45,366 nt of DNA from Verrucomicrobiota bacterium (GTDB lineage: Bacteria > Verrucomicrobiota > Verrucomicrobiia > Limisphaerales > UBA11358). The stretch is from assembly GCA_050011235.1 (NCBI GenBank), contig JBEKJN010000001.1:1-45366 (forward strand), written 5' to 3'. A program made the translations under genes and the position numbers. Each line of letters starts with the position of its first letter. Position 1 is the stretch's first letter. Shown here piece by piece: positions 364 through 22,621 of this stretch. The notes beneath the pieces were generated by a model. That model did not search any database, was not told the DNA's origin, and worked only from the letters and a program-made list of their open reading frames with translations.

Positions 364-1578
<1,215 letters not shown>

Positions 1579-3421: not shown

Positions 3422-4555
3422 TCAGGTTGGTTTTGCCAGGAGTTTCTCGTTGACGATCTTGCCACCGTGCGTGATAAGGCAGCCCTTGATGATTTCGTCG
3501 TCCAGCTTGAGGACGAAGTTTTTGTTCTGCTTGTCCCAAAATTCTTCGATGAGGCTCGTCAGGTTCGCGGAATAATCCTGGCTGGCGTGCAGCGGCACTC
3601 GTCCCGGCAGGTTGGCGATGCCGACAATTTTCACCCCGTTGCGGTCGGTCACCTGGTCCAGAACCGCGCCCTCGACGTTGCCGCCGGTCTCAATCGCCAG
3701 GTCCACGACCACGCTGCCCGGCTTCATCGCGTTGAGTATTTCGGCCGTGACCAAAATCGGCGCCCGGCGGCCAAACACCTGCGCGGCGGTGATGACGACG
3801 TCGGAATCGCCGCAGGTTTTTTTCATCGCGTCTCGCTGCTTCTGGATTTGTTCCTCGGTCAGCGCCTTGGCATAGCCGTCCTTGGTCTGGCCGGTTTCGC
3901 CGAGGTCAATTTTTAGAAATTGCGCGCCGAGCGACTTGACCTGCTCCTCCACGACGGGCCGCGTGTCGTAGGCGGTGACCTTCGCGCCGAGCCGTTTGGC
4001 GGTGGCAATCGCCTGCAAACCGGCAACGCCGACGCCGATGATGAAAACTTTCGCCGGCAGGATCGTTCCCGCCGCCGTCGTCATCATCGGAAAAATCTTG
4101 TTGGAATAACGCGCGGCGAGGATGACTGCCTCGTAGCCGCCAAGGTTTGCCTGCGACGACAACACGTCCATCTTTTGCGCGCGGGTCGTGCGCGGGATGA
4201 ATTCCATGCTGATGGCGCTGATGCCGCGTTCAGCCAGCTTTTGGACCAAATCCTTTTCGTTGAACGGATCGAGCAGGCTCACGTGAATGCCCCCGGATTT
4301 GAGCAGCGCGATTTCCTCGCCCGGCGGTTTGCGCACTCGTAGCACGAGGTCGCCGGAACCCAACAGCGCCTTGCGGTCGGCAGTGATTGTCGCGCCGGCG
4401 GCAGTGTAGGCGGCGTCGGCAAATCCCGCCCTCAGCCCGAGGCCGGCCTCGACTTCCACCTGCGCGCCGAGCTTGACCAGCTTGGCCGCGCTGTCTGGCG
4501 TCAATGGCGTTCTCGTTTCGCCCGGTTGTGTTTCCTTGGGGACGGAAATTTTCAT
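3422..4555 (-). CDS. pntAA: NAD(P) transhydrogenase alpha subunit part 1 (alanine-dehydrogenase-like dI domain)
   Basis: 377-aa ORF starting MKISVPKETQPGETRTPLTP, with a Rossmann motif VFIIGVGVAGLQAIATAKRLGA. Confidence 0.93.
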   Translation of the reverse strand: MKISVPKETQPGETRTPLTPDSAAKLVKLGAQVEVEAGLGLRAGFADAAYTAAGATITADRKALLGSGDLVLRVRKPPGEEIALLKSGGIHVSLLDPFNEKDLVQKLAERGISAISMEFIPRTTRAQKMDVLSSQANLGGYEAVILAARYSNKIFPMMTTAAGTILPAKVFIIGVGVAGLQAIATAKRLGAKVTAYDTRPVVEEQVKSLGAQFLKIDLGETGQTKDGYAKALTEEQIQKQRDAMKKTCGDSDVVITAAQVFGRRAPILVTAEILNAMKPGSVVVDLAIETGGNVEGAVLDQVTDRNGVKIVGIANLPGRVPLHASQDYSANLTSLIEEFWDKQNKNFVLKLDDEIIKGCLITHGGKIVNEKLLAKPT

Positions 4556-5441: not shown

Positions 5442-6587
5442 ATGCTGCGGACGATTTATTTCGATTTCAACGCCACGACGCCGCTCGACCCACAGGTGCG
5501 CGAGGCAATGCTGCCCTTCTTGAGCGGGGTCTGGGGCAACCCTTCATCCGTGCATCACGTCGGCCGGCGCGCCCGGGCGGCGCTTGACGATGCGCGCGAC
5601 CGCGCGGCGAAATTCCTCGTTTGCAAGCCGAGCGAACTGATTTTCACCAGCGGCGGCACGGAGAGCAACAACCTGGCGATTTTCGGCGCGGCCCGGCTGC
5701 TCATGCCGAAGGGAAAACACCTCATCACGTCAGTCATTGAACATCACGCGGTGCTCCATTGCTTTGATTACCTCGAAAAAATGGGGGGTTTCGAGGTCTC
5801 GAGGTTGCCAGTGAATCGCGAAGGTCGCGTGTCGGTCGTTGATTTGCAGCAGGCGATTCGCCCGGACACCGTGCTGGTTTCAATCATGGCGGCCAACAAC
5901 GAAATCGGCACAATCCAGCCGGTGGCTGAACTGGGCGCGGTTTGTCGTGAGCGCGGAATTGTTTTCCATACGGATGCAGTCCAATGGTTCGGCAAGGAGC
6001 TGGTCGAGAACATCAGCCAGTTCAACGCTGACTTGGTTTCGATCTGCGCCCACAAATTCCACGGGCCGAAGGGAGCGGGGCTGCTTTATATCAGGTCACC
6101 GTTGCATCCCGACCCGGTTTTGTTGGGCGGTGGGCATGAAAATAAACGACGGGCAGGGACGGAAAATCTGGCGGGCATTGTTGGGTTGGTTGGAGCTTTG
6201 GAGCGTTTCGTTCGTCCGCCGGTTTTCAGGCGGACCCTCCTTAACCCGCTGACCTTGCAGCTAATCGAGCGTGCCGGGAGCAATAAAGGCGTGGAATTTG
6301 TCGGCTCGCGTGACTTTCGTCTGGCCAATACCGCCTCATTTGTTGTGCGCGGTGCGGACAGCATTTCTTTGCTGGCCGGCTTGGATTTGGAGGGAATCTG
6401 CGCCTCGAGTGGCTCAGCTTGTTCGGCGGGTTCGCTTGAGCCTTCACATGTGATTGACGCCATCGGTCACCGGGAATTGGCGAATTCTCTGGTTCGTTTT
6501 TCTCTCGGGCGTGAATCAACAAGGGAGGAGGTGGAGATCGCCGCTGCTTCTTTCCTGGAGGTCGTCGGCCGTGTACAACACTGTTAA
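5442..6587 (+). CDS. cysteine desulfurase (class V aminotransferase, NifS/IscS-like)
   Basis: Motifs YFDFNATTPLDP, FTSGGTESNN, HTDAVQ, the PLP-lysine motif SICAHKFHGPKG and the active-site loop SSGSACSAG. The start is trimmed to MLRTIYFD (ATG 5442). Confidence 0.9.
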   Translation: MLRTIYFDFNATTPLDPQVREAMLPFLSGVWGNPSSVHHVGRRARAALDDARDRAAKFLVCKPSELIFTSGGTESNNLAIFGAARLLMPKGKHLITSVIEHHAVLHCFDYLEKMGGFEVSRLPVNREGRVSVVDLQQAIRPDTVLVSIMAANNEIGTIQPVAELGAVCRERGIVFHTDAVQWFGKELVENISQFNADLVSICAHKFHGPKGAGLLYIRSPLHPDPVLLGGGHENKRRAGTENLAGIVGLVGALERFVRPPVFRRTLLNPLTLQLIERAGSNKGVEFVGSRDFRLANTASFVVRGADSISLLAGLDLEGICASSGSACSAGSLEPSHVIDAIGHRELANSLVRFSLGRESTREEVEIAAASFLEVVGRVQHC

Positions 6588-12741: not shown

Positions 12742-12927
12742 CTAGCGGTTTTCGAGTTCATCAAATGCGCGTTCGGTAATTTCTAAGAGCCTGCCCCGGA
12801 CATCACGGGCATGTTCAACCCATTTGTCGGCACTCCAAATTTCCAGAACATCGCCCAAAATTAAAACAGCAGCGACTTCACCTTGGTTTGGGAGAAGACC
12901 CAAATCACGAAATTCGCGCGGCAGCAC
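12742..12927 (-). pseudogene. 3' part of a small AbrB/MazE/MraZ-like (SpoVT-AbrB fold) ORF whose 5' end was split off by the IS insertion
   Basis: The remaining frame reads LPREFRDLGLLPNQGEVAAVLILGDVLEIWSADKW. Removing the IS and one TSD copy joins it in frame to MAQLECRLVQLLGTKTGL, encoded at 15186-15227 on the minus strand, giving an approximately 79-aa ORF. The fold call is tentative. Confidence 0.45.
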
Positions 12928-12987
12928 TAAACCCGTTTTCGGGATTATGCACTTGACAAGTGTAAGACAAAATGGTATATTTGAGGC

Positions 12988-13983
12988 ATGAAAACTGAAT
13001 TACTGCCAACGCCAAAAGACCTGACACTCTCGCAAGTGATGAAGCGGTTTGGTTGTGAGTCGGATGCGCGGGAATATCTTGAAGCTGTTCGCTGGCCGAA
13101 TGGCGTCGTTTGTCCGCATTGCAAAAACAGCGACCCGAATAAAATCTGGAAAATCCACGCCAACACTGCCAAGAAAATACGCCCCGGTTTGTATCGTTGT
13201 GCCGAATGCGACAAGGAATTTACCGTGACTGTCGGGACGATTTTTGAGGACTCGCATATCCCGCTCTCAAAATGGCTGGTTGCGTGGTATCTCACTGTCA
13301 GTTCCAAAAAAGGGATTAGCGCATTGCAGATTCAACGCTCGCTTGGTTTGGGTAGCTACCGGACGGCATGGATGATGATGCACAAAATCCGGCATTCCAT
13401 GAAAGACCCGGCATTCAGCGAGCCATTGGACGGCGTGTTAGAAGCGGATGAAACCTACGTCGGCGGCAAGCCGCGTCCGCAGTTTGACAAAAGTTTTCCG
13501 CCGAAATTGATTCGCCCAATCAAGAAGAAATCGCCGGTGGTTGCGCTTGTGCAGCGGGGCGGGAAAGTTCGCACAAAAGTCGTGTCGAACGTCAGCCAGA
13601 AAAACCTCAAATTGTTTCTTGGCCTGAACGCCGACCCGAATTCAACCATGAACACAGACCAAGCCCCGATTTATCATCCGATCTTGCGCGGTTTCAAGCG
13701 TCACGATGTCGTGAATCATTCTCGGTTTGAATACGCCCGCCATAATCCTGACGGCACGGTGAGCGGGGTGAATTCCGCCGAGAGCTTTTTCAGTTTGCTT
13801 AAGCGCGGTATCGTTGGTGCGTTCCATCATGTTTCGCCGGAACACTTGCACCGCTATTGTGATGAATTTGGTTTTCGCTGGGACTTCCGAAAAGTCACCG
13901 ATGGCGAGCGAATGATTGAAGGGTTGAAGCGCACGGAAGGGAAACGGCTTCTTTACAAGCAGCCAATTAGCCAAAAGTCCTAG
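12988..13983 (+). CDS. IS1595-family transposase (N-terminal zinc ribbon plus ISXO2-like DDE domain)
   Basis: Motifs ARE.LE.VRWPNGVVCPHCKN...YRCAECDKEFTVTVGTIFEDSHIPL.KW, EADETYVGGK, MNTDQAPIYH and VNHS...NSAESFFSLLKRGIVGAFHHVSPEHLHRYCDEFGFRWDFR. Confidence 0.9.
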   Translation: MKTELLPTPKDLTLSQVMKRFGCESDAREYLEAVRWPNGVVCPHCKNSDPNKIWKIHANTAKKIRPGLYRCAECDKEFTVTVGTIFEDSHIPLSKWLVAWYLTVSSKKGISALQIQRSLGLGSYRTAWMMMHKIRHSMKDPAFSEPLDGVLEADETYVGGKPRPQFDKSFPPKLIRPIKKKSPVVALVQRGGKVRTKVVSNVSQKNLKLFLGLNADPNSTMNTDQAPIYHPILRGFKRHDVVNHSRFEYARHNPDGTVSGVNSAESFFSLLKRGIVGAFHHVSPEHLHRYCDEFGFRWDFRKVTDGERMIEGLKRTEGKRLLYKQPISQKS

Positions 13984-14095
13984 TTTTCAAATTGTATCAC
14001 AAAGCTACAACTTAATATCAACTTGGACAACAAACATTGGTTTTGAACAATTATTCCTTTGAAAAAGGCCCCGGCGTGCGCCATGCTACTCAAAG

Positions 14096-14198
14096 TGGTG
14101 CGGATGGCGGGATTTGAACCCGCAAGGCCGTTTATCCTTTACTAGAGGCGGCCACTGGCTTCCAAGGCCAGAGCGTTTACCAGTTTCGCCACATCCGC
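14096..14198 (-). tRNA. class-II tRNA with a leucine-type body, anticodon UGG (proline codons), a 31-nt variable arm and an encoded CCA
   Basis: Hand fold of the reverse complement: GCGGAUG-UG-GCG-AAACUGGUAAA-CGC-U-CUGGC-CUUGGAA-GCCAG-[31 nt: UGGCCGCCUCUAGUAAAGGAUAAACGGCCUU]-GCGGG-UUCAAAU-CCCGC-CAUCCGC-A-CCA. The anticodon is at 14162-14164. The D arm closely resembles that of E. coli tRNA-Leu. Confidence 0.75.
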
Positions 14199-14206
14199 AT
14201 CGGCAG

Positions 14207-14278
14207 TGGTGGAGCTAGAGGGAATCAAACCCTCTGCGGCGCAGGTGGAAATCCGTCCGCACCTTCACAGGTAGCCCC
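14207..14278 (-). ncRNA. tRNA-Ala-like / tmRNA-TLD-like RNA: Ala-type acceptor stem (G3:U70) and a T arm, without canonical D or anticodon arms; encoded CCA
   Basis: Reverse complement: GGGGCUA-CCUGUGAA-GGUGCGG-ACGGAUUUCCAC-CUGCGCC-GCA-GAGGG-UUUGAUU-CCCUC-UAGCUCC-A-CCA. The G.U pair is between 14276 and 14213. The T loop has U instead of C56. It ends 8 nt upstream of the next tRNA gene. Confidence 0.5.
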
Positions 14279-14289
14279 GCAGTCGTATA

Positions 14290-14319
14290 ACAGCCCCGGA
14301 TGTAACAGTCCGGGGCTGT
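14290..14319 (-). terminator. strong hairpin after the cargo ORF (terminator or processing signal)
   Basis: An 11-bp stem (acagccccgga / tccggggctgt) with an 8-nt loop. On the minus strand it is followed by UUAUAC, only a weak U tract, then the tRNA-like gene. Confidence 0.4.
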
Positions 14320-14369
14320 CCAATTCTACACAGTAATATGCTTCTTTTGCTTTCAAAAGTAAACCAGAT

Positions 14370-14783
14370 TTAGGCAGCCCATGTCCACAGACCACTCTTC
14401 TCTTGGACGCGGTCTTCGTCCTTAAGGTGGTTAAGAATTCTACGGGTTGTGCCATATTTAGTGCCCGACTCAGCGGTGATTTCTTTAATGGTGGCACCGC
14501 TGCCATTTCTGTTTTTTAGGAAATCGGAAACCAGTTTCTCAGATTGCCCCTTCTTAATCCGGCCATGCGGGGTTTTCTCTATCCGCACTATTGGTTGGGG
14601 GTTTGGGGGGCCAATGATACTGCTCCTTGTATATTCAGGGCCTAAACCAAAACTCTGTTTTAATGCCTTGATCTGCTTGGAAAGAGCAGAGACTCTGTCA
14701 ATAAGCGCACGGCGCTGTCGCTCCAGAATAGTCAAAAACTCTGGGGCTGATTCTTCTGTGACTTCAACGTTCATTGTTTTCAT
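14370..14783 (-). CDS. IS cargo protein: N-terminal coiled coil plus C-terminal winged-helix-like DNA-binding domain (hypothetical)
   Basis: 137-aa ORF. ILERQRRALIDRVSALSKQIKALKQ has heptad character. The C-terminus SEKLVSDFLKNRNGSGATIKEITAESGTKYGTTRRILNHLKDEDRVQEKSGLWTW looks like a wHTH. No family name assigned. Confidence 0.6.
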   Translation of the reverse strand: MKTMNVEVTEESAPEFLTILERQRRALIDRVSALSKQIKALKQSFGLGPEYTRSSIIGPPNPQPIVRIEKTPHGRIKKGQSEKLVSDFLKNRNGSGATIKEITAESGTKYGTTRRILNHLKDEDRVQEKSGLWTWAA

Positions 14784-14980
14784 AATGTTTTTTTGGCTTA
14801 AACATCTCTGCCCAAGTTAAGAGACTTGGAAGTCCATATCAAGAAAAATTTTCGAAAAAGTTACAAAAACGATATTCCCAAATAAAATCAACGGAAATTC
14901 ACCGTCAACGTTGAGCAACGATGATTTATTCGCCACGGTGAATAAAATTTACCGCGACTTTACTGGCAAACCCAGATAAA

Positions 14981-15112
14981 ATGGCTGGCGTGAAACAAAA
15001 GCCTGAATACACAAAGCCTTGCGTTTCAATGGATTTTGACGAAGTAATGCGCCGGGTGGTGCGCGTCAAACCAGAGAAACCCAAGAAGCCAGCCAAGCGG
15101 AAACACAAGTAA
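14981..15112 (+). CDS. possible 43-aa lysine-rich small ORF inside the IS, divergent from the 137-aa ORF
   Basis: My own translation: MAGVKQKPEYTKPCVSMDFDEVMRRVVRVKPEKPKKPAKRKHK*. It is below the ORF-track size cutoff. There is no other support. Confidence 0.25.
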   Translation: MAGVKQKPEYTKPCVSMDFDEVMRRVVRVKPEKPKKPAKRKHK

Positions 15113-15377
15113 AACCGCTAGTTTGTGCCATCGTTTCCAATTTTGTCACGCTTCCACTTGTCAAGTGCATAATCCCGCCCGTTTTTGTGCCAAGCAATTG
15201 TACCAAACGGCACTCCAACTGAGCCATTCCGTCGCTTTTGGCACAACTTTTATCGCTTCTTAAAACGGGAAAAAGTTAAAATTGTCCTATGTTTACAATG
15301 GTTTTATCATCATTTCCGCTGCGCGGCATCGCCATTGCTTGGAATACAGCCGAAGCAGTGTAACTACATAGAAATTT

Positions 15378-22268: not shown

Positions 22269-22621
22269 GGGGGCGTACCGGTTTCGATCCGGGAAATGCG
22301 CCAGAGGCGGCATGCCGAGGACGATGCGTTGGCCTCGTTAATCATCGCATCAAACAAAACAGCTAACGAACAATTAGCTCTCGCGGCCTAATAGTCCGCG
22401 ACGTTCGCCGGTGGACACCTGCTACGCCGGACGAACGCCATAGCAGGCATGGCGGAACGCGGAGACCGCGCGTGGTTCGCCGAGAAAATTACATGCGGAC
22501 TAGGCAGTGCGATTCGAGTCCGGACGCCATCGCACAGCAGAAAAAATTCTCCGGACTAAGCATGTAGTCGCGGCTGGTTTATTTGCCGGGGACGCGGGTT
22601 CAACTCCCGCCGCCTCCACCA
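22269..22621 (+). ncRNA. ssrA: tmRNA (SsrA), one-piece, 353 nt
   Basis: The 5' GGGGGCG pairs with the 3' CGCCUCC-ACCA (G3:U70). The T arm is GCGGG-UUCAACU-CCCGC. The tag ORF ends ...GCU AAC GAA CAA UUA GCU CUC GCG GCC UAA UAG (ANEQLALAA**). The possible resume codon is GCA at 22347. Confidence 0.93.

Follow-up and report, generated by a model that had tools for sequence, protein, structure and literature searches.

A tRNA with a leucine-type body and a proline anticodon as cargo of an IS1595-family mobile element

Introduction

The transporter insertion sequence (tIS), in which an insertion sequence (IS) carries passenger genes, is a concept of ISfinder and TnCentral, and is reportedly treated in a paper on the IS1595 family by Siguier, Gagnevin and Chandler in 2009. 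To our knowledge, the passengers described in such elements are protein-coding genes. The analysis presented here concerns a 2,238-bp mobile element, located at positions 12940-15177 of a 45,366-nucleotide stretch from a Verrucomicrobiota bacterium (contig JBEKJN010000001.1, assembly GCA_050011235.1; the whole stretch is referred to below as the window), which encodes an IS1595-family transposase and, as passengers, a tRNA (the 'cargo tRNA'), a smaller tRNA-like RNA ('RNA2') and two open reading frames (ORFs), ORF137 and ORF43. Transporter ISs with passenger genes are a recognised class within the IS1595 family (10.1101/2021.05.26.445724), and the window element is similar to them in possessing a single zinc-ribbon DDE transposase, short inverted repeats (IRs), an 8-bp target-site duplication (TSD) and passengers positioned inside the IRs; it differs from them in that its conserved passenger is a tRNA together with a tRNA-like RNA, rather than protein-coding cargo. 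No paper describing tRNA or other RNA-gene passengers in this family was found, which is not proof that none exists; an initial annotation of the window, made from the sequence alone, had likewise known of no such case. That annotation had also pointed out that the cargo is larger than the transposase gene, which is true (the cargo spans approximately 1.2 kb) and is not unusual within the family; what is new is the RNA cargo itself, which pairs a Leu-bodied tRNA bearing a proline anticodon with an alanine-type tRNA-like RNA.

Three groups of described tRNAs offer points of comparison. The nev-tRNAs of nematodes are Leu-derived class II tRNAs with glycine or isoleucine anticodons that are charged only with leucine, and that cause GGG to be read as leucine in vitro (PMC3333845, Hamashima et al. 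2012). The cargo tRNA is comparable to them in its class II leucine-type body, its Leu identity elements and its non-Leu anticodon, whereas nev-tRNA genes are eukaryotic, chromosomal and located off transposons, and the cargo tRNAs are bacterial and known from sequence; by analogy, nev-tRNAs would represent the closest precedent for leucine charging. The nearest prior observation is that of the irregular tRNAs, among them the allo-tRNAs, that are arranged in polycistrons in peat and soil bacteria, carry mismatched anticodons, and were found to be loosely associated with toxin-antitoxin systems and with a transposon-related ORF (PMC5389517, Mukai et al. 2017). The habitat is of the same kind, and both sets of RNAs share polycistronic organisation, a mismatch between anticodon and identity, and candidacy as missense or nonsense suppressors. 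Allo-tRNAs, however, display a 12-base-pair acceptor branch in an 8/4 or 9/3 arrangement and are mostly of serine identity, whereas the cargo tRNA lacks that arrangement, folds with 7/5 geometry and carries Leu identity; an 8/4 acceptor/T geometry can be drawn for RNA2 homologs at three related loci (L021, L027 and L246; loci and contigs other than the window are designated by L numbers throughout). The study of Mukai et al. describes no IS1595 element, IRs or TSDs (PMC5389517). Finally, phage-encoded and suppressor tRNAs also reside on mobile elements with codon usage unlike that of the host, but in the present case a transposable element of 2.2 kb, not a virus, carries the tRNA, and the body and anticodon of its tRNA correspond to different amino acids.

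Structure of the element

The element is delimited by one pair of IRs and an 8-bp TSD. The left terminal inverted repeat (IRL, CGGGATTATGCACTTGACAAGTGTAAG, 12940-12966, plus strand) and the right one (IRR, 15151-15177, plus strand) are each 27 nt in length and are complementary at 26 of 27 positions (96%), with an exact match over the outermost 23 nt; even with up to three mismatches tolerated, the 23-mer occurs at only two sites in the 45 kb, while none was expected from 100 shuffles. Immediately outside these repeats are two identical TSD copies of sequence CCCGTTTT, at 12932-12939 and 15178-15185. The 331-residue transposase (12988-13983, plus strand) matches NF033547 at 180 bits (cut-off 75), the DDE domain of ISXO2/IS1595 type (PF12762) at 107 bits (cut-off 27, E = 1e-30) and, across N-terminal residues 24-76, a zinc ribbon (PF12760) at 48 bits (cut-off 25.4, E = 9e-13). 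By its DDE type, its zinc ribbon, its short IRs and its 8-bp TSD, the element is a member of the IS1595 family. A strong sigma70-like promoter for the transposase gene is located at the left IR (-35 TTGACA at 12953-12958 and -10 TATATT at 12976-12981, plus strand) and was found by a promoter scan to match 11 of 12 consensus positions, with an additional TG extension.

The cargo of approximately 1.2 kb lies inside this single IR pair, and the arrangement is that of a tIS, with passengers present and a second IS copy absent. Both cargo RNAs and ORF137 are minus-strand genes that run convergently to the transposase gene, and ORF43 is encoded on the plus strand. No internal IR was found between the transposase stop codon and the RNA genes in either orientation, as 93 of 500 and 498 of 500 shuffles scored equally well. 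The GC content of the element is 48%, against 56% for the host. The initial annotation had arrived at the same family, at exact IRs spanning 12940-12962 and 15155-15177 (which the present analysis extends to 27 nt), at the same 8-bp repeat on both sides and at the lack of an internal IR, and had concluded that the 2,238 bp moved as a single unit, a conclusion with which the virtual empty site and the IR- and TSD-bearing sister elements described below agree. It is highly probable that the element is a tIS of the IS1595 family with an integral, mobile tRNA cassette.

The cargo RNAs

The gene for the cargo tRNA (14096-14198, minus strand; 103 nt including an encoded CCA) adjoins the 3' end of the transposase gene in convergent orientation, and specifies a class II tRNA with a variable arm of approximately 30 nt and a UGG anticodon. 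It is recognised over 14099-14198 of the minus strand by Rfam RF00005 at 63 bits (cut-off 29), and at 89.8 bits by R1, a covariance model that was built from the cargo tRNAs and that was also used on the loci of relatives. ARAGORN calls neither of the two cargo RNA genes, and its failure to call this one is probably due to the long variable arm. The RNA forms a canonical 7/5 cloverleaf, presents UGG (which pairs with the proline codons CCR) in the anticodon loop CUUGGAA, and carries A73, the A15:U48 pair, G18G19, U8:A14, C2-G71 and G1-C72. In an alignment of 12 lineages, 98.8% of the cloverleaf is paired and 17 of 20 pairs have changed on both sides, a result matched by none of 500 shuffles; control alignments that were slid out of register fell to approximately 40% paired. 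As read from the sequences, the unusually long variable arm consists of a five-base-pair outer stem, with compensatory changes between the window and L027 on one side and L045 on the other, an inner pairing, CCU:AGG, and a bulge rich in A. U8, A14, A15, G18G19, U33, U48 and A73 are invariant in 18 of 18 cargo tRNAs, G1-C72 is found in 17 and A37 in 13; the anticodons of these 18 are NGG (15), UUA (2) and UCC (1), with the UGC tRNA of L246 standing outside the set.

The relationship of the RNA to ordinary tRNAs was established by several comparisons. The R1 model gives an ordinary tRNA-Leu(CAG) 74 bits, and the D-arm is shared with ordinary tRNA-Leu in 60 of the 80 matches listed from a metagenome scan, which was confined to anticodons other than those with G35, returned at least 80 matches, and gives no unbiased census of anticodons; among the matches listed, no ordinary tRNA-Leu lies near a transposase. 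Because the D-arm is common to ordinary tRNA-Leu, and because tRNA-Leu(CAG) fits the R1 model, the body of the cargo tRNA is, judged by its sequence, that of a true tRNA-Leu. Bacterial leucyl-tRNA synthetase (LeuRS) is blind to the anticodon and relies on A73, the A15:U48 Levitt pair, G18G19 and U8:A14, while bacterial prolyl-tRNA synthetase (ProRS) recognises A73, G72, G15:C48, G35, G36 and G37 (PMC9976931). The cargo tRNA contains the complete Leu set but no Leu anticodon (NAG or YAA), and its UGG anticodon means that it is not a tRNA-Leu isoacceptor by decoding. Only three bacterial Pro determinants (G35, G36 and A73) are present; C1-G72, G15:C48, G37 and the short class I variable loop of bacterial tRNA-Pro are all absent. 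The cargo tRNA is likely to be functional and to be aminoacylated.

RNA2 (14207-14278, minus strand; 72 nt) is located 8 nt upstream of the cargo tRNA. It displays a 7-base-pair acceptor stem (GGGGCUA/UAGCUCC) with a G3·U70 pair, followed by A73 and an encoded CCA, and possesses a T-arm, no D-arm and a non-canonical central hairpin. The initial annotation had described both genes as tRNA-like; the first is shown by Rfam to be a true tRNA, and the description stands unaltered for RNA2. The alanyl-tRNA synthetase (AlaRS) recognises G3·U70, A73, G2-C71 and G4-C69 (PMC9976931), and the RNA2 sequence contains this acceptor set in full. Homologs of RNA2 in L021, L027 and L246 retain G3·U70 and A73 while other pairs of the acceptor and T stems change in compensation, and G3·U70, A73 and CCA persist even in L246, where the acceptor differs at several pairs. 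The geometry is 7/5 in the window, and an 8-base-pair acceptor (8/4) is predicted for the three homologs. On the strength of this conserved acceptor sequence, RNA2 is probably alanylated.

In its G3·U70 acceptor, its A73-CCA end, its T-arm and its lack of a D-stem, RNA2 is similar to the tRNA-like domain of transfer-messenger RNA (tmRNA; RF00023), but unlike tmRNA it is only 72 nt long and contains neither an mRNA-like domain nor pseudoknots. The tmRNA model scores 21.9 bits over 14207-14297 of the minus strand (cut-off 47), with only its two ends aligning, and by both score and size RNA2 is not a tmRNA. The host's own tmRNA gene (22269-22621, plus strand; tag peptide ANEQLALAA) lies 7 kb away from the element, and since its acceptor stem (GGGGGCG/CGCCUCC) is unlike that of RNA2, RNA2 is not a recent copy of it.

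A recurrent cassette in diverged elements

Class II tRNA genes are found directly downstream of every diverged ORF137 homolog for which enough contig is available (L248 shows none within its 335 nt of downstream sequence). The most complete of these sister cassettes, in L027, encodes an ORF137 homolog of 58% identity and contains CGGGATTATGCACTT-type IRs, an 8-bp TSD (CCGGCCTC), an RNA2 homolog, a UGG tRNA with an equally long variable arm and a convergent IS1595 transposase gene. L021 (ORF137 55% identical) exhibits the same type of IR and an IS1595 transposase, and its tRNA bears the anticodon UUA, which corresponds to the ochre codon; in both L021 and L027 the tRNA lies within IRs of the window type. 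A UGG tRNA accompanies the 51% identical ORF137 of L031, and two tRNAs, with anticodons UUA and UCC, accompany that of L028 (43%). In L246, where ORF137 is recognised by profile (E = 7.5e-39), a palindrome, an RNA2 homolog and a UGC tRNA are present, and the neighbouring gene is MauJ-like rather than a transposase gene; that tRNA, apart from its anticodon UGC, is one substitution from the tRNA of L027. Near-identical tRNA bodies therefore occur with swapped anticodons: UGG in the window, L027 and L031, UGC in L246, UUA in L021 and L028, and UCC in L028. Because the same order of genes recurs at 43-58% protein identity within unrelated flanks, the cargo is, as read from these sequences, a conserved cassette and not accidental host DNA.

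Distribution among IS1595 relatives

A transposase-profile scan of one genome per GTDB species was used to collect the best 80 loci (43-57% identity), among which the closest relatives derive from Verrucomicrobiota metagenome-assembled genomes (MAGs), several of them from SPRUCE peat; a peat verrucomicrobium is therefore the probable host of the window. Twelve of these 80 loci, representing 10 distinct elements, harbor Leu-bodied, A73 tRNAs with UGG or CGG anticodons, and their hosts belong to the Verrucomicrobiota, Acidobacteriota, Chloroflexota, Actinomycetota and Planctomycetota and include a Chitinispirillaceae MAG. Long-armed tRNAs of this type were identified with R1 in L045, L059, L066/L067, L080, L083, L085, L092 and L094; L042 encodes a short-armed UGG tRNA (74 nt, with G1-C72 and A37), and L082 is a partial copy that stops before the tRNA. 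A thirteenth locus, L068, has an uncertain anticodon.

Wherever the ends were mapped, which was possible for most carriers, the tRNA is inside IRs of the same terminus type (for L059 no element ends were found), and 8-bp TSDs are present in L083 (TTTAAATA), L085 (GCTATCTC), L092 and L094 (ATCGAAAT). The IRL-type terminus is common to L021, L027, L042, L044, L050 and others. Two copies in a single genome (OZ255834; L066 and L067) are 100% identical over 2,118 bp including the tRNA, and their left flanks differ, a direct indication that the tRNA-bearing unit transposes as one piece. Additional cargo of the carriers includes a restriction-modification pair and PIN, HicA-like, IrrE/helix-turn-helix and protease genes. 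Carriers are distributed patchily on the transposase tree and are absent from a large alphaproteobacterial clade, to which all relatives on sequenced plasmids belong, and no RNA gene could be detected in seven other relatives, among them L044 and L050, which have the same terminus type.

Collections of plasmids and viruses were also searched. The plasmid collection contains only distant, tRNA-less alphaproteobacterial relatives and no match to the RNA cargo; even the closest of them with an annotation reach no more than 45% identity and bear only the label 'IS1595 family transposase'. The IR pattern is absent from the viral collection. Of three further examples from that collection, L243 encodes an AGG tRNA in convergent orientation after an IS1595 transposase gene, and L245 a UGG tRNA with no transposase nearby. 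In the third, on a phage-like contig without an IS1595 transposase (L244, 6043-6679, plus strand), a 142-residue ORF resembling a winged helix-turn-helix (wHTH) directly precedes a Leu-bodied UGG tRNA, with a Gp37/Gp68-type gene upstream; this layout indicates that the arrangement of wHTH gene plus tRNA also exists in other mobile elements.

Several further observations concern individual relatives. The closest genomic relative, L042 (a Verrucomicrobiota SPRUCE MAG), contains a second IRL-like copy just upstream of its transposase gene and 400 bp inside the terminal one (3547-3573 and 3966-3981), a sign that these elements may grow by nesting or in modules. In L059, where the Leu-bodied UGG tRNA sits upstream of the transposase gene, a second, odd tRNA of 74 nt (1403-1476, minus strand; anticodon GCU, G73, no long arm) follows that gene immediately in convergent orientation. 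The tRNA-like sequence of L068 (7391-7506, minus strand; 116 nt, 61.7 bits with R1) lies in an Acidobacteriales IS1595 element with a PIN-domain gene, and its anticodon, possibly CGA, is uncertain because of an insertion of approximately 47 nt. The 6.9-Mb record OZ255834.1 begins (L066, 1-2118) and ends (L082, 6903052-6904128) inside element copies of opposite orientation, and its ends could be an assembly break at the repeat.

An unrelated second family of Leu-bodied, A73 tRNA-like sequences was encountered in L139, L143, L170, L175, L181, L182, L185 and L199. Its members share the body GCUGGUGUGGCGAAACUGGUAAACGC..., anticodons CAC, CUC, GUC or UUC, and a conserved 3' trailer (...ATTGACTCGGCG); the sequence downstream is repeated within the contig, no IS1595 transposase is nearby, and the family may represent a tRNA-derived repeat element. 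Singleton Leu-bodied tRNAs were found in L141 (approximately 6410-6497, minus strand), L146 and L188, with the anticodons UCA (of opal suppressor type), AUC and GAA.

Insertion site and population evidence

Removal in silico of 12940-15185 (the element plus one TSD copy) fuses 15227-15186 to 12939-12742 in frame on the minus strand, and restores an ORF of 79 codons that begins with ATG (MAQLECRLVQLLGTKTGLVLPREFRD...) and that aligns end to end with an 83-residue relative, P0007, which has N-terminal residues additional to those of the truncated ORF. The 3' part of the split gene (12742-12939, minus strand) is annotated as a 61-residue ORF with a GTG start at 12742-12927 and shows a weak MraZ match, while the 5' part (15186-15227, minus strand) encodes MAQLECRLVQLLGT and continues with the codons for KT in the TSD copy at 15178-15185. 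The restoration of an intact 79-residue gene indicates that the insertion, which lies between codons 17 and 18, interrupted a small MraZ/AbrB-like gene, neither half of which has decayed. (The truncated 61-residue product is named 'LpxH' by JGI, a name that looks spurious.)

About 25 metagenome contigs from JGI, ENA and Logan, each assembled independently, contain the exact transposase and ORF137 and are 99.9-100% identical to the window element with its flanks. Many of them include the left junction, and L001, L002 and L004 include both junctions, such that the two ends of the element are reproduced at 100% identity; because independent assemblies reproduce the junctions, the arrangement is not an assembly artefact. 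No natural empty site was found, as contigs with the exact 61-residue flanking ORF either have the element beside it or end too early, and the only diverged relative of the split gene (P0007, in L242) sits in another context; the empty site is thus represented by the in-silico one. Nor was a second insertion site of the same element found, all contigs except L013 showing the same site. The restored gene with its undecayed halves supports a clean and relatively recent insertion. The initial annotation had called the move recent, and the undecayed split gene agrees with this, but the event is undatable, since the element is fixed at a single site in all sampled contigs.

Other features of the cassette

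A 30-nt palindrome or hairpin (ACAGCCCCGGACUGUUACAUCCGGGGCUGU, 14290-14319, minus strand) is located upstream of RNA2. Both it and the intergenic motif are conserved at the level of sequence in the window, L021 and L027, with compensatory changes absent, and a diverged copy of the palindrome is present in L246; since it is invariant without compensation, a protein-binding site in DNA fits it better than an RNA helix. No terminator was called at the palindrome by a terminator scan. Its candidate roles are those of an operator for ORF137 and of a 5' leader or processing hairpin. Further upstream, a promoter-like motif (14323-14356, minus strand) comprises TTGAAA (14356-14351), a spacing of 22 nt and TAGAAT (14328-14323), and the spacing is equal in L021 and L027.

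ORF137 (14370-14783, minus strand), which the initial annotation had reported, encodes 137 residues and belongs to a family without a Pfam entry, its only Pfam matches being weak ones to helix-turn-helix domains. An AlphaFold2 model predicts that a long helix at the N-terminus is joined through a disordered linker to a C-terminal wHTH domain (predicted local distance difference test, pLDDT, 74 overall and 85-91 in the wHTH), and the best Foldseek matches, to Zalpha, IclR and GntR wHTH domains at E of approximately 2e-3, indicate only a generic wHTH. The modelled fold makes ORF137 a putative regulator of the RNA cassette. An exhaustive profile search yielded 140 representative clusters at E of 1e-3 or below, nearly all of full length, whereas a word-indexed search had yielded only five; no homology to the wHTH-like ORFs of distant carriers was detected by tblastn or by a hidden Markov model of 86 sequences.

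The reading frame ORF43 (14981-15112, plus strand), which had been proposed with some reserve, encodes a small basic peptide that contains the motif ...MDFDEVMRRVVRVKP followed by a tail rich in K, R and P. This pattern, P-L-x-F-[DE]-E-A-[VL]..L-L-K-V-K-P plus a basic tail, is found again in L027, L066/L067, L083 and L085, all of which carry tRNAs, and in L099; its recurrence indicates that ORF43 is a real gene. No Pfam match was found for it.

A possible mode of action

The transposase, expressed from the promoter at the left IR, acts on both 27-nt IRs and moves the 2,238-bp unit, with an 8-bp duplication of the target. The account that the cargo features suggest would proceed as follows. Transcription of both RNAs together would start at the conserved motif that precedes the palindrome, and ORF137, as a helix-mediated dimer, would bind the palindrome and gate it. 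RNase P and a 3' nuclease would then free RNA2 and the tRNA, each of which already ends in CCA. An anticodon-blind LeuRS would charge the cargo tRNA with leucine, so that CCA and CCG would be read as leucine and the cargo tRNA would act as a low-level Pro-to-Leu missense decoder; in sister elements the same body would read UAA (ochre), GGA and GCA. RNA2, bearing the AlaRS acceptor set, would be alanylated. An anticodon-blind synthetase fits because a UGC tRNA with G3-C70 is unfit for AlaRS and because a UUA tRNA has no cognate synthetase. That the cassette supplies an anticodon-independent, LeuRS-charged decoder appears to be the best explanation of the whole, and is given about an even chance of being correct; leucine as the amino acid on the cargo tRNA is proposed tentatively, with somewhat less than even confidence. 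The broader proposition, that IS1595-type tISs and occasionally phage-like elements spread repressor-gated, codon-reassigning cassettes composed of a LeuRS-charged tRNA of swappable anticodon (CCR, GCA, GGA and UAA) and a D-armless, Ala-accepting RNA, must be regarded as rather doubtful.

Alternative explanations

Two alternatives concern the element itself. The source sequence evidently derives from a metagenome. No finding favors an assembly artefact behind the IR/TSD arrangement, which has practically no likelihood, given that the element recurs at 100% identity on at least 25 contigs assembled independently by the JGI, ENA and Logan pipelines. A plain IS1595 element might instead have accidentally co-mobilised adjoining host DNA, with a cargo unrelated to the element, a case that the initial annotation had set out as one that would undo its reading. 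The close relatives L044 and L050, which bear cargo without an RNA gene, lend this idea some weight, as does L013 (positions 1-1300; JGI 3300040944 Ga0439237_0038484), in which a der/engA-like GTPase gene abuts the spacer upstream of ORF137, without ORF43 or a right IR. Window positions 14936-14968 match the 3' end of that der gene at 29 of 33 positions, with the four mismatches clustered at the junction and 100% identity inward; the spacer is not kept in the sister element L027, and possible readings of L013 are a deletion derivative, a trace of the origin of the cargo, and a chimera. Against co-mobilisation stand the same ordered cassette at 43-58% protein identity in unrelated flanks, the lack of an internal IR, a TSD that brackets the whole unit, and Leu-bodied NGG tRNAs inside the IRs of distant family members, and the idea is accordingly very improbable.

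More serious alternatives concern what the RNAs do. The cargo tRNA might be a Pro-accepting supplement, charged by ProRS through G35, G36 and A73, that assists the decoding of CCA and CCG for an AT-richer element that resides in a GC-rich host, in the manner of phage tRNAs, and a number of findings that weigh against leucine charging favor it. NGG is kept in 15 of 18 cargo tRNAs across many lineages while the anticodon stems are free to vary. Archaeal/eukaryal-type ProRS relies mainly on the anticodon together with A73 and G1-C72 (PMC9976931), and the archaeal-type rules (A73, G1-C72, G3-C70, G35 and G36) are largely satisfied by the cargo tRNAs. Conserved proline columns of carrier transposases are encoded by CCN in 29 of 33 cases (188 of 207 in non-carriers), from which it follows that the elements' own genes read CCN as proline; proline never occurs at conserved leucine (0 of 77) or hydrophobic (0 of 451) columns of carrier transposases, and these proteins hold no signal of CCN-to-Leu recoding. 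The share of CCA among proline codons is 8 of 28 (29%) in the element against 32 of 352 (9%) in the host (Fisher p = 0.005), a pattern that fits a codon-supplementing tRNA-Pro, and efficient Pro-to-Leu misreading of CCG, the host's commonest proline codon, would be costly. Proline charging, on the other hand, is at odds with the absence of the bacterial ProRS determinants G72, G15:C48 and G37 (C72 in 17 of 18, A15:U48 in 18 of 18 and A37 in 13 of 18), with the presence of the full LeuRS set, with the UGC, UUA and UCC anticodons on near-identical bodies, which ProRS could not serve, and with the little benefit that a private tRNA would bring to a 1-kb transposase gene; it is considered fairly unlikely. 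It is less likely still that the RNAs do not decode at all and are instead processing or regulatory modules or decoys, for example an antisense RNA processed by RNase P and RNase Z that restrains the transposase, or a means of titrating a synthetase, EF-Tu, SmpB or a tRNA-targeting toxin. In the window, L042, L045, L083, L085 and L243, the tRNA is convergent with the transposase gene and lies directly at its 3' end, with no terminator called between the two in the window, RNA2 lacks a canonical anticodon arm and resembles the tRNA-like domain of tmRNA, and some irregular peat and soil tRNAs are charged and yet not used in translation (PMC5389517), which also tells against a decoding role for the leucine-charged RNA. 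Such a role outside translation is opposed by purifying selection on the anticodon and on all nucleotides of the L-shape tertiary structure, by the presence of the cassette without an IS1595 transposase (on the phage-like contig L244 and in L246), and by L066, L092 and L094, where a gap of 0.8-2.7 kb separates the tRNA from the transposase or the two share an orientation. Two details of the proposed regulation also count against the leucine-decoder account: the operator idea draws on conservation of the palindrome sequence, and the motif upstream of it was rejected as a sigma70 promoter for the RNA cassette, its 22-nt spacing being non-canonical and the consensus scan having made no call there.

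Implications

The practical consequence of these observations is that annotation of the ARAGORN type misses such genes. Beyond this, the element may offer a genomic home for the 'irregular' tRNAs of peat metatranscriptomes, and its RNAs may provide compact parts for genetic-code engineering, in the form of an anticodon-tolerant Leu body, a variable arm that is both structured and unusually long, and a D-armless acceptor for alanine. Even if the cargo tRNA serves as a private tRNA-Pro, the known cargo of ISs would widen from proteins to RNAs of the translation machinery. If the cargo tRNAs are charged regardless of their anticodons, this would be the first case of a transposon family demonstrated to carry missense or nonsense suppressor tRNAs from genome to genome, and a horizontal route for code ambiguity, stop-codon read-through or adaptive mistranslation in soil and peat bacteria; under the broader proposition of codon-reassigning cassettes, new hosts across bacterial phyla would acquire regulated suppression of missense or nonsense type through transposition.

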